Origin: Candidatus Bathyarchaeota archaeon
Lineage (GTDB): Archaea > Thermoproteota > Bathyarchaeia > Bathyarchaeales > Bathycorpusculaceae
NCBI GenBank assembly: GCA_963782525.1
Contig: CAWAKC010000007.1
Location: 160,001-224,000, forward strand
Reading direction: 5' to 3'
Length of the DNA stretch: 64,000 nucleotides
Shown here: positions 2,484 through 42,601 of the stretch, one piece after another
Layout of the letters: each line of letters starts with the position of its first letter
Numbering within the stretch: the first letter of the stretch is position 1
Notes under the pieces: generated by a model
The model's input: the letters and a program-made list of their open reading frames with translations, nothing else
Told to the model about the DNA's origin: nothing
Databases searched by the model: none
Made by a program: the position numbers and the translations under genes

Positions 2484-3260
2484 TTGGAGAATATAATCGT
2501 GCCTTTAGCATTTATTATTGGAACAGCTGGTTCTGGCAAATCTCTTTTTACTGCCGCGTTTGCGGAGTGGCTTAAGATGAGCAAGCAAGATGTTGCGGTG
2601 GTCAACTTGGACCCTGGTGCGTTGAAACTGCCTTATCAACCCGACGTGGATGTCCGCAACTACGTAGAAGTCGGCGATATAATGGAGAAATACGGTTTAG
2701 GTCCAAACGGCGCTTTGGTTATGGCTGCTGACTTAATTGCTGACGAAATAGAAAATTTAACCCGTGACATCGATGAAGCCCACGCCGACATCGTCTTGGT
2801 GGACACGCCTGGGCAGATGGAGTTGTTTGCTTTCCGTGCAAGCGGACCATACATTGTCAACGAATTAACCAAAGAACCCAAAGCACTAATCTACCTCTTC
2901 GACGCAGTTTTCTCCATTAACCCGCTTAACTATGTTTCAAACATGTTCTTGGCAGCGGCAGTCTACAACAGGTTCTTCCAACCTCAGGTTCATCTGCTTT
3001 CAAAAAGCGATTTAATTCCCAAGAAAGATGTGCAAGCAATAGCGAATTGGTCCGCAAACACCAATGCACTCGAAGATGCGATTGAAGAGAAACTTGAGGG
3101 AACAAAACGGCTCTTTAGCCGCAACATGATGCAGGCAATCACCAAGCTGGGCTTACAATTCCATTTGATGCCTATTTCCTCCAAATCGAACGAGGGCATG
3201 GTCAACGTTAACACATTGCTCGAACGTATCCTAAACGAAGGAGAAAAATACACAACTTAA
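2484..3260 (+). CDS. GPN-loop GTPase
   Basis: GTAGSGKS P-loop, NLDPG, LGPNG signature, DTPGQME. Confidence 0.95.
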   Translation: MENIIVPLAFIIGTAGSGKSLFTAAFAEWLKMSKQDVAVVNLDPGALKLPYQPDVDVRNYVEVGDIMEKYGLGPNGALVMAADLIADEIENLTRDIDEAHADIVLVDTPGQMELFAFRASGPYIVNELTKEPKALIYLFDAVFSINPLNYVSNMFLAAAVYNRFFQPQVHLLSKSDLIPKKDVQAIANWSANTNALEDAIEEKLEGTKRLFSRNMMQAITKLGLQFHLMPISSKSNEGMVNVNTLLERILNEGEKYTT

Positions 3261-3892
3261 GCAGCGATTAGTGACCAACTTGCGGCGAAGGCTCCACGTT
3301 TAGCCTTTAATAGTGAGTCGGAGCCTGCGATGATGATTACGTCATTGTCTAGAGGCTTCAACTTCTCAACAAGTAGGTTTGCAGCTTTAGAGTACTGTTG
3401 CTCGATGCAATCGCTGACAGATTCGATTCTTAAGTGACCATCCTTAACAACGATGACCAACGCTTTCCGTGCCCCAGCAATTATGGCTGCATCACGCTGG
3501 TCAATACCCGACCCAACTTTTTCTCCGCTATTTTTCACCAAGAACGCAAAATTAAACTCTGACCCAGCTAACTCTGATTTTGGAATTTCGATTCGTTTCG
3601 GGAAGATTTCTTCGAATTGCCCCCAAACCTCCAAGCCCTTTTTGGTGAGGTTGCAGCCTTCTTTGGACGTTTCAACTAAACCAGCATCCACGAGCCTACT
3701 GATAATCGTGCGCACTGCCCCATCGCCAACATTCAGCTTTTCCGCCAATTTGTTCCTACCCAAAGGTTTCTGCGATAGCAACTCCAAAGCGTAGAAAACG
3801 TGGAATATTGTGAAGCTGGTTGAGGGCCCGGGAGCTTTTTTTCCAGCAATTTGCTGCATAAACTTCTTGAAAGATACCGCCATATTTTGCAC
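3257..3892 (-). CDS. HTH-domain protein (DUF4443-like, putative regulator)
   Basis: LGRNKLAEKLNVGDGAVRTII HTH; GIDQRDAAIIAGA motif. Confidence 0.7.
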   Translation of the reverse strand: MQNMAVSFKKFMQQIAGKKAPGPSTSFTIFHVFYALELLSQKPLGRNKLAEKLNVGDGAVRTIISRLVDAGLVETSKEGCNLTKKGLEVWGQFEEIFPKRIEIPKSELAGSEFNFAFLVKNSGEKVGSGIDQRDAAIIAGARKALVIVVKDGHLRIESVSDCIEQQYSKAANLLVEKLKPLDNDVIIIAGSDSLLKAKRGAFAASWSLIAA

Positions 3893-9348: not shown

Positions 9349-10347
9349 TTAGATGGGGTAAGCTCCGCAGGTTTTGCAGAACTGGATTTTTGTTTTGATG
9401 TAGCTATGGCATTTGGGGCACTGTACGCCGCCTTCAACCTTGGGGAAGACATCTTTGGGTTTGCCGAATTTCTTGCGGAAGACTTCGTAGTAGAGGAGTT
9501 GTTCTTTATCTTGGATTTCAACGTCATCTGCTGCTTTGATTGCCGCCTTCTTCTCATTGAACTCTTTGTCGGTTATCATGTCGTTGAAGTATGTACGCAG
9601 TGTCTCCGTTCCGGTGCCTGCTTCTAGAGGTGCTTTGGGTCTCCAGATTATGTCTTTGGGAATTACGTCTTCGTAGGCTTTACGCAAAATCCATTTGCCG
9701 TATTTTACGCCGTTGTAGATGTTAATCTTGTATTTGATTGGTAACTTCATTGCCCAATCCATAAATTCTGGGTCTCTGTAGGGCGCTTTGATTTGCATTC
9801 CAAGAGATTCTGCCATCGGGAAAGATGAAAAGCCCATTTCAGCCCACATTTCCTGTTGCTTTACTGCAAATTGTTCCTCTGTTAGGTGGAATTGCCATGG
9901 GTAACCGAAAAGTTCGTCTAAGGCGTCGCCAGTGAAAACGGTCTTTATCCCTTTGGGTTTTAGCAGTGTTAAGCCGATGTAGACTGGGAGACTGTTTCGG
10001 ATTTCCATGGGGTCATATTTTTTGAGTGCTTCCACAACTTTGGGGAAGTATTTCATTACGTCCTCTTTGCCGAATTGGTAGGTTTCATGTTTTAGGTGCA
10101 ATAGTTCAACCATTTTTTTGACGTATTCAGTGTCTTTGGGTTGTCCATGTTTGAAAGCTAAGGTAAGGCAGGGGATGTCGGGATTGTATTTGACAGCTTC
10201 GTAGGCGATTATTTGGGTATCGGTTCCAGCGGAGAAAAGGAAGCCATCAGCCATGTTTTTCTTGACGACTTTGTTAACTAATTTTCTAATATCTGGCAAG
10301 AGTTTGTTGACTTCTGACTCATTAATTGTCATTTCTGTCCCTCGCAT
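9349..10347 (-). CDS. asparagine synthase C-terminal (ATP pyrophosphatase) domain protein with C-terminal zinc ribbon; no glutaminase domain
   Basis: FSAGTDT PP-loop variant, TGDALDELFGY, KWILRKA, WRPK, CPKC...CKTCGAYP. Confidence 0.85.
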   Translation of the reverse strand: MRGTEMTINESEVNKLLPDIRKLVNKVVKKNMADGFLFSAGTDTQIIAYEAVKYNPDIPCLTLAFKHGQPKDTEYVKKMVELLHLKHETYQFGKEDVMKYFPKVVEALKKYDPMEIRNSLPVYIGLTLLKPKGIKTVFTGDALDELFGYPWQFHLTEEQFAVKQQEMWAEMGFSSFPMAESLGMQIKAPYRDPEFMDWAMKLPIKYKINIYNGVKYGKWILRKAYEDVIPKDIIWRPKAPLEAGTGTETLRTYFNDMITDKEFNEKKAAIKAADDVEIQDKEQLLYYEVFRKKFGKPKDVFPKVEGGVQCPKCHSYIKTKIQFCKTCGAYPI

Positions 10348-10538: not shown

Positions 10539-11291
10539 ATGAAAGTCAGCATACTTCACATGGAAATCCGCACCACCTTAGAAGGCAACCTAACTGCTTC
10601 AAAAACCGCCGTCGTCAAAGCTGCAAAACAAAACCCAGCCATAATCGCCCTCCCTGAATATTTCACAGTCCCCAACTGCATGGCAGACTTCATCAACGCA
10701 AAAAAAATATCAGAGGAAACATGCGCCAAAACGCTGGATTTTCTTCAGAAAATTTCCCAAAAAATCGACGGCGTATACCTACTCGGGGGAACAGTATTGG
10801 AAGAAGACGGCGGCAAATACTACAACACCAGCACACTCTGGAGAAACGGCAAATTACTGGCAAAATACAAGAAAATCAGTCCCATAAGAGCTGAGCTGGA
10901 GGCAGGCGTCGCCAAAGGCTCAACACCAATTGTTATAGACACAGAATTTGGCAAGCTTGGAATGATTGTTTGCGCAGACACCTTTAACCCCGAAGTCGTC
11001 ACCAAAGTTGCAGCTTTGGGCGCAGAAATCGTCTCGTTGCCCGTGGCTGCCATGGGAACCCACCCAACAGTTCAAGGCCACCCCCTAACAGTCGGCATTG
11101 CCCGTAACTTTGGTTTCTACATTCTTAAAGTCGGCAATGTATGTTCAAACATGAGGGGAGGTCGAAGCGCAATCATTGCACCATGGGGCGTCATAGGCGA
11201 AGTTACAGACTCACAAGAAGACTCCATCTTAAGCGCAGATTTAGACATGCAAGTGCTAAGAGACTACCGAGCACAACTCAGTAAATCTTAG
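10539..11291 (+). CDS. carbon-nitrogen hydrolase (nitrilase superfamily)
   Basis: LPEY, YKK, IVCAD = E-K-C triad; GRSAIIAPWG. Confidence 0.9.
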   Translation: MKVSILHMEIRTTLEGNLTASKTAVVKAAKQNPAIIALPEYFTVPNCMADFINAKKISEETCAKTLDFLQKISQKIDGVYLLGGTVLEEDGGKYYNTSTLWRNGKLLAKYKKISPIRAELEAGVAKGSTPIVIDTEFGKLGMIVCADTFNPEVVTKVAALGAEIVSLPVAAMGTHPTVQGHPLTVGIARNFGFYILKVGNVCSNMRGGRSAIIAPWGVIGEVTDSQEDSILSADLDMQVLRDYRAQLSKS

Positions 11292-12168
11292 CCCAACCGT
11301 CAACGATTCGGCTCATTTCCTTAAACTTATATTCTTCGAGCCATTGTCGGAAGTCATTGTTTTGGACAGCAAACCTTGCTACTTGCCGCGCGTTCTCTGA
11401 ATTGTGCACGAGCAGAAGTACCGCGTCGATTTTGTGTCGCGAAATGTAGGCTACGGTTTTTAGTAAGGCGTCGAGTTTTTCGCCGGTGGGCATTTCAGCG
11501 CTGAGTTCCACCACGACGGGTTTTTTTAGGGTAGCAACGAAGTCGCGAACGATGGTGTCAACCCAGTAGTTAGTAAAATAATCCCGAGATGAAAGGGGAA
11601 CATGGAAATAATCGACCAATTCGGCTATTGCTTTGAAATCTATCCCAAACCGTTCTTTAGCCAACACGGGGTCGGGGAACATTTCAATCGCGAAGGTTCC
11701 TTTTGTGTGGGTTTTGGCTTCTTTGAGGAAAGTGGTTATGATTTGAGCGCGCCACTTCGTCCTGTTTAAGCCGCTCGCTTTTCTCTGTGTGGTGCACCTT
11801 GGACAGATGCAGTAGTCTTGGTCAGGGAAATGGTAGAGGTTGAGGGTGACACCGGTTATGTTTTGACTTGATATGCCGTCGAGGTATTCGAAGACTTTAG
11901 CACGGTAACCTGGGTGGGTTGGGCAAACAAAGTCGAAAGCTAAATTAGATGTTCTGTTCCGCCTAAGCGCAGGTCCGCCTTTTGAGAGGGCAACAATGCT
12001 TGGGTCTTCACGGATAGCTTTAGCATCACAAAAAACCGTAACATCGTTCTGCATACCCACAGCCGCTGGAAAAACTTGTCCGTCAACCCATTTTGAGAAG
12101 AAAACATGCGGGTCAAAGCCCTCGACTTTTTCCGGGGTATATGTGACTAAGCCTATATTCATGCCCAA
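11278..12168 (-). CDS. uncharacterised glycoside-hydrolase-like TIM-barrel protein with C...CxCxxC motif
   Basis: FVCPTHP, YCICPRC, WRAQIITTF, PDP..AKERFGIDF; paralog of 13570-14472. Confidence 0.7.
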   Translation of the reverse strand: MGMNIGLVTYTPEKVEGFDPHVFFSKWVDGQVFPAAVGMQNDVTVFCDAKAIREDPSIVALSKGGPALRRNRTSNLAFDFVCPTHPGYRAKVFEYLDGISSQNITGVTLNLYHFPDQDYCICPRCTTQRKASGLNRTKWRAQIITTFLKEAKTHTKGTFAIEMFPDPVLAKERFGIDFKAIAELVDYFHVPLSSRDYFTNYWVDTIVRDFVATLKKPVVVELSAEMPTGEKLDALLKTVAYISRHKIDAVLLLVHNSENARQVARFAVQNNDFRQWLEEYKFKEMSRIVDGWAKIY

Positions 12169-12220
12169 TCCTCGCTCGCAACAAATATATTATTGGCGCT
12201 TATTTAATTGTTGATTCAAA

Positions 12221-12439
12221 ATGGACAAGCATAAAACACCAATCACAATTGATGCAACTAAATGTCCACCCTGCGCGGGGCAAGTTTGTATCGGTGTTTG
12301 TCCACAAGGCGCCTTAGAAGAGGGAAAAAACAGAAAACCCCAAGTTATCGCAGTTGTCCAATGTACAAAATGTGGCGTATGCGTTAATCTGTGTCCAAAC
12401 AAAGCCATCACCTTAAATGTTAGCAACCCCAAAAAATAA
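12221..12439 (+). CDS. 4Fe-4S dicluster ferredoxin
   Basis: CPPCAGQVCIGVCP and CTKCGVCVNLCP; stop overlaps cbiZ start. Confidence 0.88.
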   Translation: MDKHKTPITIDATKCPPCAGQVCIGVCPQGALEEGKNRKPQVIAVVQCTKCGVCVNLCPNKAITLNVSNPKK

Positions 12440-13494
12440 TGTGGGGACTAGCGGGTTTGGAACAAATCGACCTTGCGGATAATGTTAGATTGATTATTAA
12501 AGATAATGTACTAGCCGTTTTTTGTGATAGCGCTTTAAAAACAGTTAGCTCTGCAATATACAATGGTGGGCACAATCAGGTTAAAGCTGTCCTCAATGTA
12601 GGAGTGCCAGAAGGATACAGTGACCTCTCCTTGCACCTTGACCCGCTTGAACTAATCACTTCATCGGCGGCGAAGGTTGGATTAACCAAAGACTACCTCG
12701 CCATGGTTACCGCCGCTAAAATAAAAAATTACAGCTTAGTGACAAAGAAAACACTTGAGTTCTCCGTAAGCGTCGCCGCCACAGCAGGGTGCTCACACGG
12801 CGAATCCTCAGGCGAAGAAATGGAGGTTCAGGAAATCGCAAAAACAGGAACCATAAACATCATTGTCCTGATTGATGGGAACCCAACGGAAAGTTGCATG
12901 GTCGCCGCCTTAATCACCGCAACTGAAGCGAAGTCCGCTGTTATGAGGGATTTTGATGTTCGGAGCCGTTACACTGGCGACTCAGCCACGGGTTCTATAA
13001 CTGACAGTGTCACTGTAGCGTCACCTTGCAGGGGCAAAACGTTGAGTTTAGCTGGTCCAGCCTCGAAACTGGGCAAAATGATTGGGTCTTGCGCTAGGCA
13101 TGCAGTTACGGAAGCTCTACTTAAGCAGGAGCCAGTTTGGGGTTGCCGAAGCGTGTTAGACAGGCTTAAAGAGAGACATCTTGGTGTGGAGAAGTTGGCG
13201 GTTGAAGTATCCAAAGTTGAAGGTTTGGAAATTAATGCGGCCGAGTTAACTGAACTTTTAAAAAACAATCCTATTGCAACATCTTATCTTTTGGGTGCGG
13301 CAAAGATGGATGACGATTACAAGAAGAACCTGTTGCCAACCGACTTTAAAGATTTTACAGAAATAAGTAGGTGTTTTGGCACCTTTGCCTCTTCAGAAAA
13401 CGACTGCTCAAAGCTTCCAAATTACGATTCAATCGACTTGCCGCCCTTCCTAAAGCAGGCGTTAATCAAAATTGTAAAAAAAACGCGGGCATAA
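12439..13494 (+). CDS. cbiZ: adenosylcobinamide amidohydrolase
   Basis: SSAIYNGG, MVTAA, ATAG, GTINII, TATEAK, ATGSITD pattern. Confidence 0.85.
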   Translation: MWGLAGLEQIDLADNVRLIIKDNVLAVFCDSALKTVSSAIYNGGHNQVKAVLNVGVPEGYSDLSLHLDPLELITSSAAKVGLTKDYLAMVTAAKIKNYSLVTKKTLEFSVSVAATAGCSHGESSGEEMEVQEIAKTGTINIIVLIDGNPTESCMVAALITATEAKSAVMRDFDVRSRYTGDSATGSITDSVTVASPCRGKTLSLAGPASKLGKMIGSCARHAVTEALLKQEPVWGCRSVLDRLKERHLGVEKLAVEVSKVEGLEINAAELTELLKNNPIATSYLLGAAKMDDDYKKNLLPTDFKDFTEISRCFGTFASSENDCSKLPNYDSIDLPPFLKQALIKIVKKTRA

Positions 13495-13569
13495 CATCTA
13501 CCGAAAAGACTTAAATAACTTGCACTTTTATTTCGTAAATAAAAACAACATTACAATGGTGAATTAAAC

Positions 13570-14472
13570 TTGAAATTTGGCGTATTTCTCTATCAACCCG
13601 AGCCTGTTGAAGGCGTCGATTACAATTTCTACCGTCAAAAATCAGAATCTGGAATCGTCGGAAAAGTAAACCCAAAGATGTACACTAACATCGCAGTTTT
13701 CGGCGACAACAACATGGCCGCAAAACGGCCAGATTGGGTGTCTGTAAGCTCATTTGGTCCAGCACTCAGAACAAACAAACGCTACAATCTCCGCTGGGAC
13801 GTCGTATGCATGACTAACCCAGAAGCCAAAGAATATAACTTAAAAATCATCGCCGAAACCGCCAAAGTTTCCCCAGGCATCAGCATCAGCAGTCAACACT
13901 TTGCAGATCAAGGTTTCTGCACGTGCCCAAGATGCATTGAACAACAAAGCAAAAGCGGCTTAGGCTGGGTGGAATGGCGAGCAAAAGTAGTAACCGATTT
14001 CCTTGCTGAAGTTAAAGAAATTGTCAGCGGAAAACCGCTCTTTGTCAACCTCCTTCCAGACCCATTGTTGGGCAAGGTACGTTTCGGCTATGACTTTGAA
14101 GCTTTAGCACAATATGCTGACTACTTCGTCATTCCAATGTTCAGCAAGGCATACCCGACCCCCTGGTACTGGGAAACCATCGCACGCGGTTTCAAAAGCC
14201 AACTAAAGAAACCAATGTTCGTTAATTTCTATGTCCGTGGCCCAAACGAAACTTGGGACACTGTTGCAACAACAAAGCAAATCATGACTGTTGCAACCCG
14301 TGTTGCAAGACAAGGAGTAGACGGCATTATTTTCCTTGCTGAGAAAGCCGAATACATCCAAAAGTTCCAAAAAGAAGCTGCAGCCGACAAAGAAACACGT
14401 GAGTTCCTCAAAGACCACAACGGCGACGACGTGTTGGAACTTTTCAGCCGATGGGAAAAACTATACAAATAG
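13570..14472 (+). CDS. uncharacterised glycoside-hydrolase-like TIM-barrel protein with C...CxCxxC motif
   Basis: VVCMTNP, FCTCPRC, WRAKVVTDF, PDP..GKVRFGYDF; paralog of 11278-12168. Confidence 0.75.
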   Translation: MKFGVFLYQPEPVEGVDYNFYRQKSESGIVGKVNPKMYTNIAVFGDNNMAAKRPDWVSVSSFGPALRTNKRYNLRWDVVCMTNPEAKEYNLKIIAETAKVSPGISISSQHFADQGFCTCPRCIEQQSKSGLGWVEWRAKVVTDFLAEVKEIVSGKPLFVNLLPDPLLGKVRFGYDFEALAQYADYFVIPMFSKAYPTPWYWETIARGFKSQLKKPMFVNFYVRGPNETWDTVATTKQIMTVATRVARQGVDGIIFLAEKAEYIQKFQKEAAADKETREFLKDHNGDDVLELFSRWEKLYK

Positions 14473-14607
14473 TTTCCCTTTATTCTTTTTAATTTTATTT
14501 TGTTTGATACATTTAAGTTAAGGTTACGCCATTTTCTTTGTTGTTCCACAATTTCAACAAGCCATTTTTCAAAATACTGACTTGCTATGGAACGTGAAGG
14601 TTAAAGT

Positions 14608-14850
14608 ATGAAGACAATTAAGGGTTGGAAACGGCTCAGCCACGATTGCGGATACCAAAACGATACTTCAGGGCAAATTGTGATTGTTGTGCAGAAAGAA
14701 TTCAGCCGAAACTTTCATGTGCGGTTGTTCGAGTCGGGACAATCCGAAAAAGAAGATGGCAAAACCATTTCGCCAGATTACGCTTCAAAAGCTAGAGCTG
14801 ACGCATTCGCTGAAGACTGGATGCAAAAACACCCAAAAGGGGCAGAATAA
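14608..14850 (+). CDS. small hypothetical protein
   Basis: Isolated 80-aa ORF with normal composition. Confidence 0.6.
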   Translation: MKTIKGWKRLSHDCGYQNDTSGQIVIVVQKEFSRNFHVRLFESGQSEKEDGKTISPDYASKARADAFAEDWMQKHPKGAE

Positions 14851-14884
14851 AAATTTAAGAAACTGCAAAATTAAATAGTTAAAA

Positions 14885-15046
14885 TTAGGTTTGTGCAGCC
14901 TTAAGTTGTGCATCGATTTTTCTTTGACGTTTTTGTAGAACTTTGCGTTTGTTTGCTTTTGGATTTGGTTTTACTCGGTAAACTTTTCCGTGAGTATTCT
15001 GGTAGTACTTAGTTCCTTTGGACTTTAGTTTAGTTTTTTTCTTCAA
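14885..15046 (-). CDS. unannotated 53-aa highly basic protein
   Basis: TTG start preceded by AAGGAGG; MKKKTKLKSKGTKYYQNTHGKVYRVKPNPKANKRKVLQKRQRKIDAQLKAAQT. Confidence 0.6.
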   Translation of the reverse strand: MKKKTKLKSKGTKYYQNTHGKVYRVKPNPKANKRKVLQKRQRKIDAQLKAAQT

Positions 15047-15276
15047 GCGTATAGTCCCTCCTTGGCTCTTTAACTGGGAATTGTGCTATACAATACACCG
15101 TAACTATTTGAGCATGCCTATGAAATTTCGGGCATCAAGAAGCTAAAGCTTTGTTTAATTATATCGTTTTACCCGATAAAACGTCATTGGTTTATAAGCA
15201 TGGTAGAACCTATATTTGATGAGCTTGTAAAGACTCGATTTTTTGCAAGAACAATATGTGAGAAGGCAAACGTTAA

Positions 15277-15411
15277 ATGTATACTTACGAGAAATTAGTT
15301 CAAGAAAAATTTAAATGCAGAATATGCTCCTCAAGTTTTCAAACTCCAGACGAACTAAGAGACCACCGGATGAATGCACACAAAACACACATGCTCACTT
15401 ATAGGCGTTAA
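15277..15411 (+). CDS. unannotated single C2H2 zinc-finger microprotein (44 aa)
   Basis: MYTYEKLVQEKFKCRICSSSFQTPDELRDHRMNAHKTHMLTYRR fits F-x-C-x2-C-x3-F-x5-L-x2-H-x4-H. Confidence 0.7.
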   Translation: MYTYEKLVQEKFKCRICSSSFQTPDELRDHRMNAHKTHMLTYRR

Positions 15412-15612
15412 AACCACTATGAAGCCGGCAGAGAATCATCCCTCTGTCAAAGAATCCAATAATCTGAACTTTTGCCCTTCTGTTTTTTGGAGTTCACAGA
15501 ATATTTTTTTAACCTTTCTGCATTATCCGTAGATTTTTCACTTTATTGTTTTATCTAGAAAACTATATAATCCAACAAAACGTACTCCACTCACTAAAAG
15601 GGCGAAACACCA

Positions 15613-16995
15613 TTGAAAATTACTCTTATCAACCCACCATATCCGCCAAGCGTACATTCACACCCACCCTTTATCCCCTTAGGTCTTGGATATTTAGGCG
15701 CTGTTGCCGAAAAAGCAGGCCACCAAGTAACCATCATCGACTGTCAAGCTGAAAAACTAAATTATGAAACTTTCACCGCGCGCATCAGCCAAACGTCCTC
15801 TGATGTAATCGGTGTAACAGCGACCACTTTGCTTTACAAGTCGGCCATGAAGCTAATCATCATAGCTAAACAGGCTCAGCCACAGGCAGTAACGATGCTC
15901 GGTGGGTCGCATGGAACTTTCTGGGATGAAAACGCCCTTAATGAATACCCAAGCTTGGACATTGTTGTTCGAAGAGAAGGCGAACGAACCTTCATTGAAC
16001 TACTCGAAAAACTTCAAGCCCAAGCCAGCCTCGCCAATGTACTGGGCGTCACATACCGAAATGGAGATAAAATCGCCCGCAACCCAGATCGACCATTCAT
16101 AGAAAACTTAGATTCCATTCCGTTCCCCGCTCACCACTTGATGCCGCTGGAAAGCCTCAAGCGGGACGGCAAAATCCTCTTCCCCCTAATCAGCAGCCGC
16201 GGATGCGTGTTTTGGTGTGACTTCTGCAGCACTGTTCGTATGTTCGGCAGAGGTTACCGTTGGCGAAGCCCAAAAAACGTCGTCGACGAAATGCAGTTGA
16301 TACACGACAAATACGGCGTCAAACAAGTAACGTTCTACGATGACGCCTTTACCGTTGACCGCAACCGAGTCATACAAATCTGTGATGAACTACACGCAAG
16401 AAAGCTGGATATGATGTGGGATTGCGGCACCCGAGTCGACATGGTTGACCGCGAACTATTGACAACCATGCGTTCTGCAGGTTGTTTCGCGGTTTGGTTG
16501 GGTGTAGAGTCTGGTTCTGAAGCCATACTCGGCGCCATGAATAAGAGCATAAAGCTGGACCAGACAAGAAAAGCATACAAAACCGCTCACGAAGTTGGCT
16601 TGATGACGATTGCAAACGTTGTTTTAGGATTTCCAGGAGAAACAGATAAGACCGCAAAAGAAACAATCCGCTTTGTGAAGGAACTAAACCCCGACGATGT
16701 AGGTTTTTACGTAGCTACACCTTACCCAGGAACGCCCATGTACGAGGAAGTCAAGAAAAACGGTTGGCTACGCGTAACAGACTTTGACAAGTACGACACG
16801 GCTGGTCCCACCTTTGAAACACCATCCCTGAGCATGGAGGCGCTGGCTAAACTTCGCTACAAGGCATACCAAGATTTTTACTTGCGCCCAAGCTACGTGT
16901 TTAGAATGATGCGGAAAGGCGGAACCTACGGAAGAGCAGCTGTTAAAACTTCAGGAGCTTACTTGCTCAGGTACTTCCACATTAAGCTGTCTTAA
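15613..16995 (+). CDS. cobalamin-dependent (class B) radical SAM protein
   Basis: PLGLGYL B12-binding domain, SRGCVFWCDFC, FYDDAF, GVESGS, TPYPGT. Confidence 0.92.
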   Translation: MKITLINPPYPPSVHSHPPFIPLGLGYLGAVAEKAGHQVTIIDCQAEKLNYETFTARISQTSSDVIGVTATTLLYKSAMKLIIIAKQAQPQAVTMLGGSHGTFWDENALNEYPSLDIVVRREGERTFIELLEKLQAQASLANVLGVTYRNGDKIARNPDRPFIENLDSIPFPAHHLMPLESLKRDGKILFPLISSRGCVFWCDFCSTVRMFGRGYRWRSPKNVVDEMQLIHDKYGVKQVTFYDDAFTVDRNRVIQICDELHARKLDMMWDCGTRVDMVDRELLTTMRSAGCFAVWLGVESGSEAILGAMNKSIKLDQTRKAYKTAHEVGLMTIANVVLGFPGETDKTAKETIRFVKELNPDDVGFYVATPYPGTPMYEEVKKNGWLRVTDFDKYDTAGPTFETPSLSMEALAKLRYKAYQDFYLRPSYVFRMMRKGGTYGRAAVKTSGAYLLRYFHIKLS

Positions 16996-17361
16996 TTCCC
17001 TACTTTTCCTAACTAACGCAATTACAGCAAGAACTAACACTAATGTACAGAGCGAAACAGTAATAGGCCCAAAATCGAACCCGATCGACGTTAAACCCAA
17101 AAACAAACCCACCAAACCAGTTAAACCAAAGCTTAGTGCAACAGACAAAACTAGTTGCTCAACGAAGTCTACCTTGTTTTTGCCCAAGAACAAAACGTTC
17201 ACGAGACAGTAGCCAGGTAAAAAGGCTATAAAAACAAAACTCAATACATATCTTGGAATTAAGACTACAGAAAAATCTGGACTGCCAGGAATAAGATAAG
17301 TTACCAGTAACGTTAATGCCGTGAATCCAACGATAATTTCAAACCATCTGAGCGGTTTCAG
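16951..17361 (-). CDS. DUF1616-like membrane protein
   Basis: FLPGY...EQLVLSVALS motif; frame stays open upstream of track start 17244 to a CTG at 17361 (MKPLRWFEIIVGF...). Confidence 0.7.
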   Translation of the reverse strand: MKPLRWFEIIVGFTALTLLVTYLIPGSPDFSVVLIPRYVLSFVFIAFLPGYCLVNVLFLGKNKVDFVEQLVLSVALSFGLTGLVGLFLGLTSIGFDFGPITVSLCTLVLVLAVIALVRKSRELRQLNVEVPEQVSS

Positions 17362-17406
17362 ATTTTAGCCTTCAAAAATTTAAAAAAATAAAAAGGGAAA
17401 GAATGT

Positions 17407-18318
17407 TTACATGAACATCTTGTAGATTGGATGAGACTCTTCGAGGGGCCTTGTTCCGAGATCGCCTGCTGCTGAAGCAATATATGTATCTGTGACTGCA
17501 ACTGCTGGGAATACCCATTCAGCTTGTTCTGCCGGGCCAATCATAAGCCAGTTTGCGCCTGCCATTTGCATGATTGAGTTTGTTGCGGTTCTGCATCCTG
17601 GACGGAATTCTTTAGCGACGTTTGCTTTAACCCATCCCATGGTTGTGACAACGTTTCCGCTGCCTAAACCGACTGGGTGACCATACTTCTCTTTCATGAT
17701 AGGTATAGTTCTAACGGCTGTGCCCATGTCTGGTTCGAATGCTGGGATGGCTGTGTCGATTAGTGGTTTTGTGATGCCACCTTTGTCTGCTAATGCGAGC
17801 GCTTCAACTATGACTTTCATTTTGCCTTCCATTGTGGTGTCTTTTGGATCATCAGCAAGCACTATGGACATTTTGATGCCACTGTCTTTGAGGTTTGCTA
17901 GTTCAGCATCGGTTACGCCTTTGTAAACTGAGTTGTAGAGACATCTGTCTGCGAGACCCATCTTTTTTGCTAAGGTTGCTGCTCCCATGCGGGTCTTTGG
18001 ACTCATTGCGTCAAGCATGAGTGGTGCATCAGTGTGTTTCGGTACGAAGTCAATGTATTTTTCGAATGCAGCTTCAGTTGTACCGACGATGTCAAGAGCA
18101 AATTTAACGCCTGTTATGTCGCTTTGGGTCTGGCATGTATTAATGATTTGTTCGGCTGCTTTAGCATCAAAAATTCCTTTGTTTGCATCGGTAACCATTT
18201 TTTGGCCTAGCCAAAAGATGGAGCCGATCAGGAAGGTTGGATTTTCTCCTGGTTGACCGCCTATTTTTGCTCCAGCGAGGTCATATACTTTTTGGGGGGT
18301 ATTGAACTTAAAGGACAT
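17407..18318 (-). CDS. mtrH: MtrH-family corrinoid:tetrahydromethanopterin methyltransferase (soluble MtgA/MtoA/MtxH-like)
   Basis: IGGQPGENPTFLIGSIF, YNSV, PLIDTA, GANWLMIGP; no other mtr subunits nearby. Confidence 0.85.
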   Translation of the reverse strand: MSFKFNTPQKVYDLAGAKIGGQPGENPTFLIGSIFWLGQKMVTDANKGIFDAKAAEQIINTCQTQSDITGVKFALDIVGTTEAAFEKYIDFVPKHTDAPLMLDAMSPKTRMGAATLAKKMGLADRCLYNSVYKGVTDAELANLKDSGIKMSIVLADDPKDTTMEGKMKVIVEALALADKGGITKPLIDTAIPAFEPDMGTAVRTIPIMKEKYGHPVGLGSGNVVTTMGWVKANVAKEFRPGCRTATNSIMQMAGANWLMIGPAEQAEWVFPAVAVTDTYIASAAGDLGTRPLEESHPIYKMFM

Positions 18319-18337
18319 TATTCCACATCAGATGGAT

Positions 18338-18763
18338 TTATTTCTTCAGTGCTTTCTTTGCTAGCTCTGGAGCCTCTTCTTTGTTCTTGCCGAAGAGTGC
18401 ACCGAGTGCATCAGCATCTTCTTTTTTGACTGCTGCGCCGCCCATGATTATGCCGACTTTGTCTTTGAGGCCTGCTGCTTTGAGTAATTCGTCGAGTTTT
18501 GCTAGGTTGTTCTTTGCGGGAACTGTGTTGACTGAGATTGCGATTAGGTTTGCATTGTTTTCTTTTACTTTGTCAATGAAGACTTGTGGTGCAACGCTTT
18601 TTCCAACATCAATGGTTTTGAATCCTGCGCGTTTTAGAGACCGCCTAACTGCTTCTTTTGCAGTGTCGTGCATGTCTGGTTCAATGTTTCCGATTACGAC
18701 AATACCGAGTGGATTTTCTGGTTCTGGAGGCTCTTTTTCCATCATAGATTTAAGCCAAGACAT
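18338..18763 (-). CDS. stand-alone cobalamin-binding (corrinoid) protein
   Basis: DMHDTAK (DxHxxG variant), IDVG, IIMGGA; lacks helical cap; 19 bp upstream of mtrH-like gene. Confidence 0.85.
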   Translation of the reverse strand: MSWLKSMMEKEPPEPENPLGIVVIGNIEPDMHDTAKEAVRRSLKRAGFKTIDVGKSVAPQVFIDKVKENNANLIAISVNTVPAKNNLAKLDELLKAAGLKDKVGIIMGGAAVKKEDADALGALFGKNKEEAPELAKKALKK

Positions 18764-26312: not shown

Positions 26313-26385
26313 TGCGGTTGCCGGGATTTGAACCCGAGTCGACAGCTTGGGAAGCTGCAGTCCTACCGAACTAGACTACAACCGC
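26313..26385 (-). tRNA. tRNA-Gly(CCC), intronless, CCA not encoded
   Basis: GCGGTTG acceptor stem, anticodon arm GCAGC-TTCCCAA-GCTGT, T-loop GGTTCAAATCC. Confidence 0.95.
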
Positions 26386-26478: not shown

Positions 26479-27315
26479 TCAGTTAAGGATTCTAGTTGCG
26501 TCGACGATGTATCCGCAGTTAGTGAGTTCGCGTATGAGGGCAAGTTTCCAGCTGTCGCGGTCATCGAAGGCTGCGAGCTTTAAGCCTTCAAAATCGGTAG
26601 GGCACTCAAAGTTTGCGCATTCCCGATAGAAGACGAGTATATGGTCTTTACCAAGCTTGCCTATTAGAAAACCAAGTTCAAAAACCACGTCCTGCCTTGG
26701 TCGGAGCCTTCGTTTTGTGGGCGATTCCTTCTTAGCGTAAGCAAAATCATCAGGTGACAGCAAAACTACGGCAAAACCGACATCTTTGTAGTCAGCGAAG
26801 CGTTCAACAATTTTTCTGCCTTGACTTGGCTCCTCACACATAACTACAGGCACAAGCCAAAGTTTAGTCAGAGCATTAGTGATTGCTTGTTTCATTTCAT
26901 CATCGGTACCGCAAACAACGAAAATCCTGCGCCTATCCGAAACAGACTTTGATTGAAATGGATCTAGAGTTTTTTCGGTTGAGGACAAAAATTTTTCAGT
27001 GCAGAGGTATGCGCCTTTGACTTTGCCTTTGAGGATGCTATCGAGGAGATATTTTTTGTCTTTGGCAGCTACAAGGTTTTCTTGGTTAGGAAGGGTTAGT
27101 TTGTCAGCTGTTTCATAGGACCAGAAGATGACAGCTTTATTGACTTTTAGGGGGTTGAGGAGTTTGCCCATGAACCAGAAAGGTTGGCCTGCGGTAAAAG
27201 ATGTGGAGAAGGTGCGTACTAGTTCCTCTTGAGGAACGTTAAATCGAATACCGGATTTACCTGGCTCGGCGTATTCAACATAGATGTGATACTTGGGCAC
27301 TTGCACACTAATCAA
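26479..27315 (-). CDS. TIR-like nucleotide-binding domain protein (Cap12/Pycsar-type TIR) with unknown N-terminal domain
   Basis: IFVVCG, FAVVLLSPDD, RPRQDVVFELGFLIGKLG, PTDFEG. Confidence 0.88.
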   Translation of the reverse strand: MISVQVPKYHIYVEYAEPGKSGIRFNVPQEELVRTFSTSFTAGQPFWFMGKLLNPLKVNKAVIFWSYETADKLTLPNQENLVAAKDKKYLLDSILKGKVKGAYLCTEKFLSSTEKTLDPFQSKSVSDRRRIFVVCGTDDEMKQAITNALTKLWLVPVVMCEEPSQGRKIVERFADYKDVGFAVVLLSPDDFAYAKKESPTKRRLRPRQDVVFELGFLIGKLGKDHILVFYRECANFECPTDFEGLKLAAFDDRDSWKLALIRELTNCGYIVDATRILN

Positions 27316-32025: not shown

Positions 32026-32922
32026 ATCCTTCGCGTAGGGCAAGCCTGCGCGGGCGCCCATAGCCAACACTTTTCGGGACCCAACAAAATTGCCCAGTTG
32101 ACCGCATTCGTAGAGACTTTTTTCGTGGATTAAACCGTAGAGAAAGCCCGCGTTGAAAGCATCTCCCGCGCCGGTGGTGTCGAGTGCTTTAACTTTGAAG
32201 GGTTCCACACTGAGATGTTCTTGACCATCCGTAACGTAGCAACCTTTGCTTCCGAGTTTCACCGCCACGATCTTGACGCCCATACCAATCATGAAATCGG
32301 CGCCTCTACGAAAGTCTTCTTCGCCTGTTAACAGTTCAAGTTCAGCCGCATTAGGCATCAAAACGTGGGAGTTCTTAATTAGGGGTTCTATGACGCCGAA
32401 ACCTTTTTGTGCATACACAGAGCCCGGATCGAAGCTGATTTCGACCCCTTCAGGCAAGGCGCTTAAGAGTTTTTTTTGTGCACGGAACGATTTTTCACCT
32501 ACAAAAGAGGATAGGTGGACGAGTTTGGTTTGGGAAACGTATTCGTATTTGATTTCTCTGGGCTCGATTAAGTCGTTGACGCCTGAGTTAATGTAGAGTG
32601 TTCTTGCGCCTGTTCTGTCCACGAAACCCATCACTGAGCCGCTTCTGCCCTTTGTTGTATCGATGATTCCGCGGGTGTCCACGCCTTCGGCTTTGAAGCA
32701 GTCAAGCTGCAGTTTGCCTTCGCGGTCGCCAGCAACTTTTCCTATGAAACCAACTTTGCAGCCAAGCCTAGCTAGCCCTACAATCGTGTTTGCGGCTGAG
32801 CCTCCGCAGGCTTCCTTGTAGTCTTCGATGAAGCTTTCTTTTTCAGCGGTTGCAAATTTGTCTACTTTGAAGAGCATGTCAACGTTGAGTGCTCCGAATC
32901 CTATTACGTCAAATTTTGTCAT
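32008..32922 (-). CDS. PfkB/ribokinase-family kinase (EhaT-like)
   Basis: [20 protein letters not shown]; ATGA overlap with ftr-like gene. Confidence 0.92.
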
Positions 32923-33827
32923 ACAAACAACTCTTTTAATGGGATTTTGTGTTCGCCCAGTTTGCCGCCGTAGTTACCAGCGGATATCCGCACGACGCCA
33001 TCTACGTCTAATACGGCTTTTATTCCTGCTTTGGTGGCTTCTTTAACAGCGTCTATGGAAATGCCGTCGAAAACGATTTCGGCGATGTAGTTGACGCCTT
33101 CTGGAACCTTCGATTCCTTGCCTAAGCGTGATTTAAGCGAGGGACAGTACAGGTGGTTGGTGGTAGGCCCTATTTTCGGATAATGGGTTTCGGGTTTGGA
33201 ACCAGCTGAACAGATATCAAAGGTAGTCACGACGCCATACACTTTGTGAATTGCCTTCAGGGCTTTGGCGCCCGCGTAATTAAGCGCCTCTTTTGATGTG
33301 CACATTATCCAAAAGTTGCCGCCCATAACACCCCGAGCGTAACCAAGATACCGTTCAATAACAAAGTCAGGAACCATAAGTGGAACAACGATGACTTCTC
33401 TACCAAAACGCTTTTCGACCCACTCATAGCCATCGCCGCAGTGACCCACACTCTCCATCATGTCTAACTTGCCCTCGGACCTTGGTAAAGCATCAAAAAC
33501 GGCGGTGAAGGGTTTAACGAGGATGTCTTGGCGGATGCGGTAAGAGAGTTCGGTTTCGAACTTTTTTAGTGATTCCGCGAAAGTTTTTTTGGGATTGATT
33601 TCGCCCCAAAACTGCAAGGTTGCGCCCATGCGTTTGTCGGGTGTTTCGTTTGGGTTTAGGTATTTTTCTACGCCACCTTCAGTTCTGCCAATGACAACCG
33701 ACGGAGTCGCTGTGGAGTCTTCAGCTGCCTTACGCATACTCTGTTCATCATCCGCAGTAATAATTACCCTGCAAAAAAGCCCCGTAAACGCTTCAGCGTA
33801 AGTGTCTTCGATTACTGCTTTACCCAT
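32919..33827 (-). CDS. ftr: formylmethanofuran:tetrahydromethanopterin formyltransferase-like protein (divergent, EhaS-like)
   Basis: [34 protein letters not shown]; [13 protein letters not shown] and [12 protein letters not shown] differ from canonical Ftr. Confidence 0.88.
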
Positions 33828-38507: not shown

Positions 38508-39941
38508 TTATGGTTGCCATTTTTCAATAAGGTACTTGGGTATCTCTGAGCTGTCGCGTGGTCCAACTTGGACTTTCCAGCCGCTGAGTTCTTCGATTTC
38601 GCCGCTGATGCGTGAGGCTTTGCCAGGGATGATGATTTTGCGGTGTTTGACTTTCTGTTCTATGCCGCTGGCTTTGATTGCTTCTGCGACTCTTTCGGCT
38701 GTGAGTTTGCGTCCTGCGACTCCGCTGTCGATTGCTGAGCCCTCTGTTTCGACGACGATTAAGTAGGCGTTGAGTTTGTTTGCTTCGATGTCTGAGGCGA
38801 CTGTGTAGTAGGTAAGGGCGAAGTTTGATGTGAACATGACTGGTGAGTTCTCGTCTGGGGTGCCGTAGACTTTGAGGCCTGGTGCGACTGCGACTGGTTT
38901 GCGTGGATCAGTGTAGATGTTCTGGCGTAGTACGGTTGTTGGTAGGAGTGCCCATCCGTCGTTGCCGTGCATGATTAATACGTCTGCGTACCGGACTACG
39001 AGCATGGATGCAATGTATGCTTCGCGCCATTTTACGAGGTCGTCTGCTGTTTCGCCTTTATCTACCCAAGCGACCATGGGGACGCCGAGTAGAGGTAAGC
39101 CTGCGAGTTCTTCGCCGCCTTTGGTTGCTGCTCTTCGGAGCATGGTAAAGTTGTCGATTGTGTCTGGTAAGCCTTCGTTTATGAATGTGCCAGGGTCTAG
39201 GACGATGTCTTTTACGCCGTAAGCCATCAGGGTTTTTGCGAGTGAGACGAGGGTTGTTAGGTCGTTTGGTGCAGATGCGACTATTGGGCAATCGTACATT
39301 AAAGCGAGTTCTGCCATGTCTTTCCAGTTGGTTTGGTTTGCTGCGTAGAGGAGTGGTCTTGCTTTTGGTGCTGCCATTAAGCCTGCTTCAGCGATTGCTG
39401 GGCTCATGGTGCAGAGAATCATAGGCAACTTTGTGGTATCTGAAACTTTTTTGACTGTTGCCTTGAATTTGTCTGCATCACCTGAAGTGCAACGAACTGC
39501 TATCATGTCGAGTTTTAGGGTGTTTCCGATGTATTCGAAAGTAAAGTTATCTGTTTTTTGGACGCGTGAGACAATTTCGGCATCGCTCATTTCGTCAGTT
39601 ACGTCGATTGCGATGGCTGTTGGGTTTTTATATGTGAATTCGTGGCGGTACATGACTAGTTTGCCGCCGATTTTTTTGGCTTTGTCGCCGACGCCTACGA
39701 TGACTTCTTTGACTGCTGGTTTTAGGAGTTCTTTGAGTACAGCGTATGCTTTGGCGTTTTCGGGTTTGAGGAGTGGTTTGCAACTGTCGAGTTCTACTTC
39801 GCGGTTGACAATTTTTGTGGCGAATGCCATGCAGTTGTTGACGCCGCATTCTTTGCAGTTAATTTTTGGCAAGCTCTTGTAAATGGTTATGGGGCTTAGT
39901 TCTTTTAATCCGCCTTTTTTCTTTTCTGCCATATTAGTCAT
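38508..39941 (-). CDS. cdhE: ACDS complex gamma subunit (corrinoid Fe-S protein large subunit)
   Basis: LPKINCKECG..CMAFA, YTDPRKP, NFALTY, GPRDS. Confidence 0.96.
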   Translation of the reverse strand: MTNMAEKKKGGLKELSPITIYKSLPKINCKECGVNNCMAFATKIVNREVELDSCKPLLKPENAKAYAVLKELLKPAVKEVIVGVGDKAKKIGGKLVMYRHEFTYKNPTAIAIDVTDEMSDAEIVSRVQKTDNFTFEYIGNTLKLDMIAVRCTSGDADKFKATVKKVSDTTKLPMILCTMSPAIAEAGLMAAPKARPLLYAANQTNWKDMAELALMYDCPIVASAPNDLTTLVSLAKTLMAYGVKDIVLDPGTFINEGLPDTIDNFTMLRRAATKGGEELAGLPLLGVPMVAWVDKGETADDLVKWREAYIASMLVVRYADVLIMHGNDGWALLPTTVLRQNIYTDPRKPVAVAPGLKVYGTPDENSPVMFTSNFALTYYTVASDIEANKLNAYLIVVETEGSAIDSGVAGRKLTAERVAEAIKASGIEQKVKHRKIIIPGKASRISGEIEELSGWKVQVGPRDSSEIPKYLIEKWQP

Positions 39942-39947
39942 GTCTCC

Positions 39948-41189
39948 TTAAGCTTTCACTGTGACCCAGTTTGCGTATTTTGATGGGTCTGCTTTTTTGC
40001 CGCTTGTTAGGTAGTTTGTGACGTCTTTTAGTGTTTTTACTGCTGCTGGATGCATCATCATGAATAGGTCTACGCCTGCAAGCAACAGTGTTATGGCTGT
40101 TGTTACTTCCCAGAGTGGACCTCTGAGTTCGCGTGGTTCCCATTGAGCATCCATCTTTAGCCAGGCTTCTCTTGCTGCCCAAGCGTTGGTTGTGCCTGAG
40201 GACATTGGGTGTGCGAGTTCAATGTCGCCCATTAAGCCGCCGATTCTTGCGCGTTCCATGTTTGTGAATGCGTAATCTAAGCCGTAGCCTAAGGCTGCTG
40301 TGGTTAGGTCCATAACGATGTCTTCTCTTGCGACGTAGTCATAGAGGCGTCTGTTTAATTCGCGTGCCAAGTTGAGGTCCATTGGTGTGAATGAGAGGAT
40401 TGCGTGGCCTGCTTTTTTGATGAATTTTGCGCATTTTTCGACATCCATGTCGCGTGTGACTGAGCTAATTAGGAAACGTTCGCCTGGGAATTGTGCGCAT
40501 ACTTCTTCGAAGACCGCTGTGTCTTTAACTGGGTCGCCGCATCCGCCTATAACGAGTGGAACGTCAACTGCTTGCAGGACTTTCTCTATGGTTTTGCATG
40601 CATCTTTTGGTGTTGCATCTTTGAGTAGTGGATCTACACTGATTAGGTGCATTGTAACCATGTCTGCGCCGAATTTGTCAACAGCAAGTTTTGCCCAAGC
40701 TGCGGGGTCGCCGACGACGTCTTTAACGTGCATCTTTACGGCCTTTGACAGTGGAACTTCCATGTCGAAAACGTCTAAGGTTACAATTGGTTTGTGTGTT
40801 GTTGGTGCTTCAAAATTGTAGTAAGCGGGAGATACTTCTCCGCCTATGAGGAATGATTTGCCGCGTGTTCCGCCTTCGCTTTTTGTTGCCCCTAGTTTTA
40901 CTGTGGTGATTTTGTTCGGGTATTTTTCGATTGGTGGTAAAAAGGGTACTTGCAGCATGCTTAGTGGTTTGCCACCTGCTATTGCCGCGGTTGGTGGAAG
41001 CTTAAGTTTAGGCATTATTTGGCCTGCTGCGCCTGATTCGAAGATGATTTCGAGTTCTTTAGCATCAATTTGGAAGTCTTCCAGCTCAATGGTCTGGAAT
41101 TTTGCAAGAGCTGCTAGTAGGTCTTCGCTTAGCTGTAGTCCTTCAGCGTCTTTCTTTTTGTCGTTGTCGTTTTGGGGCGTTGAAATCAC
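39948..41189 (-). CDS. cdhD: ACDS complex delta subunit (corrinoid Fe-S protein small subunit)
   Basis: LGATKSEGGTR, ALGYGLDY, NAWAAREAW, MMHP. Confidence 0.96.
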   Translation of the reverse strand: MISTPQNDNDKKKDAEGLQLSEDLLAALAKFQTIELEDFQIDAKELEIIFESGAAGQIMPKLKLPPTAAIAGGKPLSMLQVPFLPPIEKYPNKITTVKLGATKSEGGTRGKSFLIGGEVSPAYYNFEAPTTHKPIVTLDVFDMEVPLSKAVKMHVKDVVGDPAAWAKLAVDKFGADMVTMHLISVDPLLKDATPKDACKTIEKVLQAVDVPLVIGGCGDPVKDTAVFEEVCAQFPGERFLISSVTRDMDVEKCAKFIKKAGHAILSFTPMDLNLARELNRRLYDYVAREDIVMDLTTAALGYGLDYAFTNMERARIGGLMGDIELAHPMSSGTTNAWAAREAWLKMDAQWEPRELRGPLWEVTTAITLLLAGVDLFMMMHPAAVKTLKDVTNYLTSGKKADPSKYANWVTVKA

Positions 41190-42598: not shown

Positions 42599-42601
42599 TT
42601 T

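Follow-up and report, generated by a model that had tools for sequence, protein, structure and literature searches.

The locus described here lies in a stretch of 64,000 nucleotides from Candidatus Bathyarchaeota archaeon (assembly GCA_963782525.1, contig CAWAKC010000007.1, positions 160,001 to 224,000 of the forward strand); this whole 64-kb stretch is called the window, and positions are counted within it. Two paralogous genes, here named parA and parB, encode proteins of 296 and 300 residues that are 32% identical (98/303 identities by BLASTP, E 1e-59), share a C...CxCxxC pattern and bracket a ferredoxin gene and a cbiZ gene (Table 1). A preliminary description made from the sequence alone had pointed to this arrangement and to a B12-binding radical SAM enzyme, a corrinoid protein and an MtrH-like gene nearby, all of which is confirmed. 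It had also taken the MtrH/corrinoid pair to lack its first methyltransferase (MT1). That claim is not supported, for sequence comparison places both paralogs in the MtgB family of Bathyarchaeia, an MT1 family reported by Yu et al. (mLife 2023, PMC10989822). The MtrH-family and corrinoid proteins are accordingly named MtgA and MtgC, and the first methyltransferase is present. The earlier idea of a new substrate:corrinoid methyltransferase family was thus right in kind for parB, but the family is not new.

Table 1. Features of the locus and of other parts of the window that are discussed in the text
Feature	Positions	Strand	Assignment and remarks	Pfam support
Regulator	3257-3892	minus	DUF4443/CggR_N type	
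PP-loop protein	9349-10347	minus	asparagine-synthase-like	Asn_synthase, E 3.4e-35
CN_hydrolase	10539-11291	plus	nitrilase/amidase superfamily; convergent on parA	E 8.3e-29
parA	11278-12168	minus	~300-aa Cys-motif barrel paralog; sister-clade relative of MtgB_1/MtgB_2; divergent from ferredoxin-CbiZ-parB	
Ferredoxin	12221-12439	plus	2x[4Fe-4S], 72 aa	Fer4_10, E 5.3e-8
CbiZ	12439-13494	plus	adenosylcobinamide amidohydrolase family; ~130-aa C-terminal extension	PF01955, E 1.8e-46, residues 32-223
parB	13570-14472	plus	putative MtgB_2 counterpart; glycosidase-like TIM barrel with Cys4 site	
B12-binding radical SAM enzyme	15613-16995	plus		Radical_SAM and B12-binding
Small membrane protein	16951-17244	minus	'membrane protein' of the published cluster	DUF1616, E 2.9e-17
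MtgA	17407-18318	minus	MtrH-family methyl-corrinoid:tetrahydromethanopterin methyltransferase (MT2)	MtrH, E 5.4e-78
MtgC	18338-18763	minus	corrinoid carrier protein, 141 aa	B12-binding domain, E 7.3e-14
tRNA gene	26313-26385	minus		
TIR-domain protein	26479-27315	minus	CAP12/Pycsar effector type; adjoins the tRNA gene	
Ftr	32919-33827		formylmethanofuran:tetrahydromethanopterin formyltransferase	
CODH/ACS operon	38508-46411		complete archaeal carbon monoxide dehydrogenase/acetyl-CoA synthase (CdhA-E) with CooC-like ATPase	

Judging from its orthologues, which begin MKIGLVTY, parA probably starts not at the listed TTG but at an ATG two codons further in. The ferredoxin stop and the CbiZ start share one base (TAATG), and the pair is translationally coupled. 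The MtgC, MtgA and DUF1616 genes lie about 2.5 kb from parB, and MtgA is the sole MtrH match in the genome. The N-terminus MSWLKSMM of MtgC is found in 14/14 aligned orthologues; the protein has the base-off/His-on motif in its D-x-H-x-x-A version and is far better conserved (78-99% identity, 54 loci) than parA (65-93%, 64 loci). As the preliminary description had it, none of the 42 open reading frames (ORFs) of the window that were scanned matches the MtaB or MttB Pfam families. The genome, which is 95.8% complete, has no match to the activase family RACo_C_ter (PF14574); this does not prove absence but agrees with the statement in the published study that no activase was identified (PMC10989822). 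Metatranscriptome contigs from four runs (at least 90% likeness) cover MtrH and MtgC densely and the radical SAM gene, parA and parB in part; they can neither rank the genes nor prove transcription.

Membership of the MtgB family

Yu et al. described MtgB_1 and MtgB_2 of 'Ca. Baizosediminiarchaeum ligniniphilus' as Bathyarchaeia-specific MT1 enzymes that move methyl groups from lignin-derived methoxyaromatics to a corrinoid carrier. According to the published text, the two proteins have about 300 residues, are 44.85% similar to each other and show no homology to known MT1 enzymes, and the gene order is MtgC, MtgA, membrane protein, MtgB_1, MtgB_2. With guaiacol/vanillin as substrate, MtgB_2 and MtgC, supplied with a foreign activase and Ti(III), produced the spectral shift from Co(I) to methyl-Co(III), and high-performance liquid chromatography showed catechol. 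High expression is also reported there, and MtgB_2 was found in the proteome. The MtgB family has thus already been published, together with its activity and its occurrence in Bathy-6 genomes (PMC10989822).

Is parB the counterpart of the protein that was assayed? Orthology was judged indirectly, via the published cloning primers and a genome (G090, whose cluster is locus L097) that shares the order of the window genome but not its family. In G090 the genes follow one another as corrinoid protein, MtrH, DUF1616 membrane protein, P0295, P0294, CbiZ, ferredoxin, a divergent parA-like gene and CN_hydrolase; from the corrinoid protein to P0294 it is identical to the published table. The MtgB_2 forward primer has a single mismatch to the first 25 bases of the P0294 gene, in the TTG start codon. 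The MtgC forward primer has none at the start of the G090 corrinoid gene and two at 18740-18763 of the window. P0294 ends in DKWETILD, and the MtgB_2 reverse primer translates to DKWESILD. P0294 and P0295 are 45% identical, which fits the published figure for MtgB_1 and MtgB_2. parB is 52% identical (154/298) to P0294 and 44.5% to P0295, and it lies directly downstream of ferredoxin-CbiZ, just as P0294 adjoins CbiZ in G090. Because of this difference in identity and its position next to CbiZ, we regard parB as the MtgB_2 counterpart.

In a maximum-likelihood tree of 36 family members, the window genome is represented by four copies: parA, parB and two more, parC and parD, encoded elsewhere. 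The latter two group with P0295 (the MtgB_1 group) with support of 100/99. A single clade (100/100) unites parB with P0294 and the MtgB_1 group, and the tree does not settle the branching order of these three lineages. parA, the parA-like gene of G090 and P0122 are sister to this MtgB_1/MtgB_2 clade, and the joint clade has support of 99/99. That parA is the distant 'group 3' of the published study is a guess on our part.

The parB locus has much in common with the MtgB proteins of Yu et al.: orthology, a size of about 300 residues with no MT1 match, the termini MKFG.F.Y ... WE[KST][IL], and genes for MtgC, MtgA and the membrane protein encoded nearby. The family is likewise largely confined to one bathyarchaeal order, with several paralogs per genome. 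The window genome differs in that it belongs to another family of the order and has its MtgB_1-type copies dispersed elsewhere, and the B12-radical SAM gene that separates parB from MtgA is a further difference from the published and G090 clusters, being absent from the latter. Close homologues that carry names are mostly proteins of Bathyarchaeota metagenome-assembled genomes (MAGs), two having bacterial MAG labels; remote relatives (at most 35% identity) occur in Bacillota and Halobacteria MAGs, beyond the stated restriction of the family to Bathyarchaeia.

Gene order was followed in 80 loci with parB orthologues (79-98% identity, nearly all labelled Bathyarchaeia or Bathyarchaeota, many on short contigs). 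These have a parA orthologue (66/80), ferredoxin (73/80), CbiZ (75/80), MtrH (57/80), the corrinoid protein (56/80), the B12-radical SAM gene (59/80), CN_hydrolase (61/80) and the asparagine-synthase-like PP-loop protein (59/80). The loci come from closely related genomes that are syntenic over the entire 20 kb, so that the counts measure stability and do not amount to independent evidence of association. Several loci have the MtgC-MtgA-radical SAM block in inverted orientation or at another place with respect to parB, and in a few (such as L013, L014, L015, L026 and L028) parB stands apart from parA-ferredoxin-CbiZ. A survey of the genus found the family in 31/40 genomes, mostly with three to five matches each; complete single-contig genomes are among the nine without it.

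Some neighbours deserve a remark in their own right. CN_hydrolase, which also adjoins the parA-like gene of G090, and the PP-loop protein together resemble a split glutamine-dependent amidotransferase, and a homologue of the latter (36% identical) is encoded in a cobamide locus of another bathyarchaeal family (f12, locus L092, 15921-16844). A regulator of the DUF4443/CggR_N type occurs in the window and also directly after BtuD in the same f12 locus (13783-14439). The TIR-domain gene beside the tRNA gene is possibly a defence gene that occupies an integration hot spot.

Glycosidase-like fold and candidate catalytic positions

A hidden Markov model (HMM) search of 1.84 billion representatives showed the family to be small, with 176 clusters at E <= 1e-3 and 36 at E <= 1e-30. 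C80, C117, C119, C122, G173 and Y195 (parB numbering) are invariant in the 34-sequence family alignment. A further 226 homologues comprise 80 parB orthologues, 66 parA orthologues and 80 distant relatives from outside Bathyarchaeia (clade O); among these the four Cys, D46, F111, D164 and Y195 are invariant, and R137 and R171 are each altered in one sequence. The motifs to which the preliminary description drew attention (C...CxCxxC, WRA.(I/V)(I/V)T.F and PDP...RFG.DF) are thus confirmed and conserved.

Neither paralog matches an NCBIfam model. parA has no Pfam match, and those of parB lie below the gathering threshold: DUF4015 (PF13200) at 20.5 bits against a cut-off of 27, and DUF4838. parD likewise scores 22.1 bits on GHL10 (PF02638) against a cut-off of 27.9. 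A phmmer search with parB against PDB sequences gave no match at E <= 10. AlphaFold2 run on the 34-sequence alignment gave a confident (beta/alpha)8 barrel, with a predicted local distance difference test score (pLDDT) of 96.3 and a predicted template-modelling score of 0.92, in keeping with the TIM barrel proposed earlier; it supersedes a poor single-sequence model (pLDDT 55.1). The best Foldseek matches to the model are PgaB/BpsB (glycoside hydrolase family GH153), Cwp19, GH191, GH156 and PelA. A structure search independent of Foldseek gave Z scores of 20.9 for Cwp19 and BpsB/PgaB, 20.2 for GH29 fucosidase and 15.8-17.7 for GH42 enzymes. Good structural matches are therefore glycosidase-type barrels throughout.

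Classical MT1 enzymes are also TIM barrels, and MtaB uses zinc. These enzymes (MtaB, the MttB-superfamily MtgB of Desulfitobacterium, bacterial O-demethylase MT1 and MtoB) do the job that is proposed for the MtgB family, transferring a substrate methyl group to the Co(I) of a small corrinoid protein from which an MT2 takes it. They have no Pfam or NCBIfam sequence relation to parA and parB, however, whose barrel appears to come from a glycosidase lineage, and the name MtgB is shared with an unrelated glycine-betaine enzyme. None of them (MtaB, MttB superfamily) is among the 50 best structural matches, a result that cannot by itself exclude kinship.

The remote tail of the family HMM search consists of GHL10, DUF4015, GHL6 and GH42 proteins. 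Fourteen GHL10-type proteins carry the C...CxCxxC pattern, and hhalign aligns them with the family over 229 columns (probability 99.9%, E 3.3e-33). The GHL10 (PF02638; Clostridioides difficile Cwp19, PDB 5oq2) and DUF4015 barrels thus appear to share with parA and parB a homologous (beta/alpha)8 barrel and Cys site. Unlike them, parA and parB are short, cytoplasmic and single-domain, and the strand-4 Asp of GHL10 (the 'LDY' motif) is replaced by Ser in parB and Asn in parA. GH42 beta-galactosidases (PDB 3tts, 1kwk, 5xb7) also combine a TIM barrel with the four-Cys pattern; their trimerisation and C-terminal domains are missing from parA and parB, and their acid/base Glu is not conserved. In a weak match (E 0.049) the family profile places C80 and CxCxxC on CPNSP...CYCDNC of 3tts, a pattern that we take to be the zinc site of Thermus A4 beta-galactosidase; the resemblance to this site noted in the preliminary description is thereby supported. 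By analogy with GH42, the four invariant Cys most likely hold a structural zinc.

The same weak match aligns the Asn-Glu of GH42 with Phe111-Ala/Pro112. The preliminary description had YHF/QHF in place of Asn-Glu and for that reason doubted a classical glycosidase. The evidence supports the doubt, but which residue does the replacing is uncertain, since strand 4 of the model ends at position 107. Clan GH-A glycosidases have their acid/base where strand 4 ends, and strand 7 carries the nucleophile. We assumed that position 107, at the strand-4 end of the model, and position 219, on strand 7, are equivalent to these catalytic residues. Relatives linked to btu genes (family f12 of the class-wide sample described below) or to an adenosyltransferase (f33), clade O and the fourth family copy of G090 have Asp or Glu at 107 (Asp in 80/80 of clade O) and Glu at 219 (80/80 of clade O). 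Another btu-linked relative (f15) has Asp and Gly. Asn and Glu occupy the two positions in parA orthologues (66/66 for each), Ser and Asn in parB orthologues (80/80 for each); MtgB_1-type proteins and P0294 have Asn or Ser at 107 and Ser, Ala, Asn or Gly at 219. The acidic residue at the end of strand 4 that marks clan GH-A is thus missing from both parA and parB. This distribution suggests a stepwise loss of the putative hydrolytic pair toward the MtgB methyltransferases, and argues that parA and parB would not be functionally interchangeable.

Are the paralogs simply cytoplasmic glycoside hydrolases of an ordinary kind that lie by chance near corrinoid genes? The fold and the remote homology are glycosidase-like, as seen in the sub-threshold DUF4015 and DUF4838 matches, in top structural matches that are all glycosidases, and in the hhalign result with GHL10-type proteins. 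Yet parB lacks both candidate catalytic carboxylates and parA the one on strand 4, the association with corrinoid genes recurs in unrelated lineages, and Yu et al. report methyltransferase activity for a close relative of the parB group (PMC10989822). We consider this reading highly improbable, and ordinary glycosidase activity unlikely for either protein.

B12-linked relatives and the roles of parA and parB

A class-wide sample of 401 genomes contained 92 with the family. Divided by taxonomic family, matches were found in 60/103 genomes of f1, 13/18 of f5, 3/3 of f12 and 1/14 of f15, and in 14/74 genomes of seven more families together, f33 included. Several of the distant members, single-copy ones among them, sit in B12 loci. 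Homologues between btuF and btuC are found at 9754-10548 of L092 and at 9543-10445 of L096. In two f12 genomes the order is BtuF, homologue, a small radical SAM gene, BtuC, BtuD, divergent from CbiB, CobT, CbiZ and CobS; the radical SAM gene (L092, 10649-11413) encodes a 254-residue activase-like protein. The f15 locus has BtuF, homologue, BtuC and BtuD, divergent from a CobD aminotransferase, a Cys-rich small protein, CbiP and CbiB, with CbiZ further on. In two f33 genomes the homologue is divergent from a PduO-type cobalamin adenosyltransferase, and the other flanks differ. The fourth copy of G090 has no B12 neighbours. An Rfam scan of the window and of loci L092, L096, L100 and L101 detected no cobalamin riboswitch.

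Clade O (Bacillota and Halobacteria MAGs) was sampled as 80 metagenome loci, of which 31 have at least 4 kb on both sides. In two low-GC loci (L100, 951-4998; L101, 945-7295) the homologue comes last after MeaB, an acyl-CoA mutase and a B12-binding subunit, and in one haloarchaeal locus these three genes lie within 4 kb of it. Local queries found this set in these 3/80 loci and in none of the other 77. A family member in MeaB-mutase operons suggests a role in servicing adenosylcobalamin enzymes. The majority of those 77 carry PyrI (41/80) and PyrB (37/80) beside the homologue, along with a NUDIX hydrolase (50/80, often about 100-150 bases away), an arrangement of the haloarchaeal-type loci L102-L179. 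A tblastn search with distant bathyarchaeal queries, which has limited sensitivity, found BtuF, BtuC, CbiZ, CbiB, CobS, adenosyltransferase, MtrH or the corrinoid protein in 0/80. The B12 link therefore recurs in several separate lineages and is not universal: the association of the homologues with corrinoid genes that the preliminary description looked for exists, but most haloarchaeal relatives lack it.

The CbiZ encoded between parA and parB is not the only one in its genome. A second, 33% identical over its whole length, belongs to a locus with the order BtuF-BtuC-BtuD-radical SAM/SPASM-DUF2284-CbiZ, in which the radical SAM/SPASM gene (L099, 7749-9497) and DUF2284 lie between BtuD and CbiZ. 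The possibility that the window CbiZ is a specialised second copy was considered and is weakened by two related genomes (G347 and G193), where the mtgB-linked CbiZ is the only one found. Because it is the sole copy there, the linked CbiZ is probably an ordinary salvage enzyme. Five genomes of the genus without the family still have one to five CbiZ copies, and CbiZ copy number therefore gives no co-occurrence signal.

For parB we prefer the reading, with a probability of about 0.72, that it works as reported for MtgB_2, that is, as a methoxyaromatic:corrinoid methyltransferase. Its (beta/alpha)8 barrel, of glycosidase descent, with the catalytic carboxylates presumably gone and Cys4 most likely holding a structural zinc as in GH42, would bind a methoxyaromatic (guaiacol or vanillin, for example) at the C-terminal face, and the methyl group would be handed to the Co(I) of MtgC. 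MtgA would then pass it to tetrahydromethanopterin (H4MPT). The resulting methyl-H4MPT could enter the CODH/ACS of the window, whose operon forms, together with Ftr, a plausible Wood-Ljungdahl sink. parA, which also appears to have lost the strand-4 acid but keeps the strand-7 Glu, may be an MT1-like enzyme of different specificity, the likeliest reading, or, less probably, a cofactor-directed enzyme tied to ferredoxin-CbiZ. Family identity, fold, motif conservation and gene order are results of the present analysis, and methyl transfer is the published activity of MtgB_2 (PMC10989822); what the proteins of the window do, their zinc and the role of parA are inferred from these.

Several observations weigh against this assignment of the two proteins. 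The MtgB_2 reverse primer has no match within three mismatches on G090 DNA, nor has the forward primer on the window. The activity of MtgB_2 is known from one paper's assay of one protein, to which parB is 52% identical as judged via the G090 counterpart. The tree does not place parB with P0294 in preference to the MtgB_1 group. parC and parD have unrelated neighbourhoods (ion transporters, eRF1, a tRNA synthetase, topoisomerase, MMPL genes). parA retains Glu219, as relatives outside MtgB do, and adjoins ferredoxin-CbiZ, so that it possibly has a different role. Finally, distant relatives occur in cobamide-salvage, adenosyltransferase and mutase loci with neither MtgC nor MtgA nearby, contexts that fit a cofactor-directed function better than an aromatic-directed one.

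These last points lead to the alternative that parA handles the corrinoid cofactor together with ferredoxin-CbiZ (in salvage, remodelling or ligand processing) and so keeps part of an ancestral function. Glu219 is present in 66/66 parA orthologues and 80/80 distant relatives, against Asn in 80/80 parB orthologues. parA-ferredoxin-CbiZ stays joined where parB is displaced, as in the five loci named above, and the arrangement recurs in f5; as f1 and f5 loci are related, however, this synteny is not independent. Relatives lie between btuF and btuC near CobS, CbiZ, CobT and CbiB (f12) or CobD, CbiP, CbiB and CbiZ (f15), beside the adenosyltransferase (f33) or after MeaB-mutase-B12 subunit operons, while 77/80 clade-O loci have no MeaB, mutase or B12 subunit and 0/80 have Btu or Cbi genes. 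CbiZ itself is independent of the family, as the five family-free genomes show, and parA has lost the strand-4 acid (Asn107, 66/66) as MtgB_1 and MtgB_2 have, with which it clusters at 99/99. A TIM-barrel hydrolase of cobamide loci is already known in CbiR of Akkermansia muciniphila, described as a metal-dependent cobamide-remodelling phosphodiesterase of cobamide-salvage loci (Mok et al. 2020, PMC7733943). It is a member of the AP endonuclease 2 superfamily (PF01261), to which parA and parB have no match at E <= 0.01. We know of no cobamide-cleaving activity in the parA/parB family. The preliminary description had named cobamide lower-ligand remodelling together with CbiZ as its second alternative, and for parA this idea draws some indirect support from the distant relatives in cobamide-salvage loci. 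On balance, cofactor handling by parA is a tentative possibility.

A broader version would make the MtgB methyltransferases a recent, carboxylate-less offshoot of an undescribed glycosidase-derived family whose ancestral members, with both carboxylates, act on the B12 cofactor. Such members might, for instance, cleave or exchange a glycosidic bond, either in the nucleotide loop of the cobamide or in a ribosyl by-product. Their setting would be that in which relatives are found: btuF-X-btuC and CobT/CobS/CbiB/CbiZ salvage loci, the neighbourhood of cobalamin adenosyltransferase, and the end of MeaB-mutase operons. parA, which has the strand-7 Glu and is tied to ferredoxin-CbiZ, would be an intermediate still engaged in maintaining the cofactor for MtgC and not in demethylating substrates. 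We regard this scenario as rather unlikely.

An improbable extension is that the whole family, MtgB_2 included, is at root devoted to B12-cofactor processing, the reported O-demethylase activity being secondary or a side reaction of the assay. B12-linked contexts free of Mtg genes occur in at least four separate lineages, and the assay, as published, used a trigger-factor fusion, a low concentration and a foreign activase, methanol as substrate being the only negative control found (PMC10989822). Against this stand the spectral methylation, catechol formation, high expression and proteomic detection of MtgB_2 in the same report. MtgB_1 and MtgB_2 moreover directly adjoin MtgC-MtgA, and they lack both of the carboxylates kept by the relatives in B12 loci, which fits a change of function.

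How much of this is new? Comparison with the text and part of the supplements of the published study gave no earlier mention of the glycosidase-like fold, the carboxylate split between clades, the Cys4 site, the conserved ferredoxin-CbiZ neighbour or the relatives in B12 loci. The words 'zinc', 'AlphaFold', 'TIM barrel' and 'Pfam' do not occur in its main text, nor 'cobinamide' and 'ferredoxin' in the supplements that the comparison covered (PMC10989822). Among the papers from 2023 on that a literature search listed, none is on the structure of MtgB, judged by titles and abstract openings.

With parB and its relatives assigned to the MtgB family, hypothetical genes that match no Pfam or NCBIfam model can be given this name. 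The naming closes an apparent gap, that of an MT2 and a corrinoid protein without an MT1, in Bathyarchaeia from peat, soil and termite-gut-type lineages, and ties the locus to a probable use of lignin methoxyl groups that would feed the Wood-Ljungdahl pathway of the same window. The invariant Cys4 and the Glu/Asn and Asp/Asn/Ser splits between clades are direct targets for mutagenesis. For the family as a whole, the results point to a glycosidase-like barrel as the possible origin of a corrinoid methyltransferase. The relatives in B12 loci that have intact carboxylates are candidates for an unrecognised step of cobamide salvage, and are the part most worth following.

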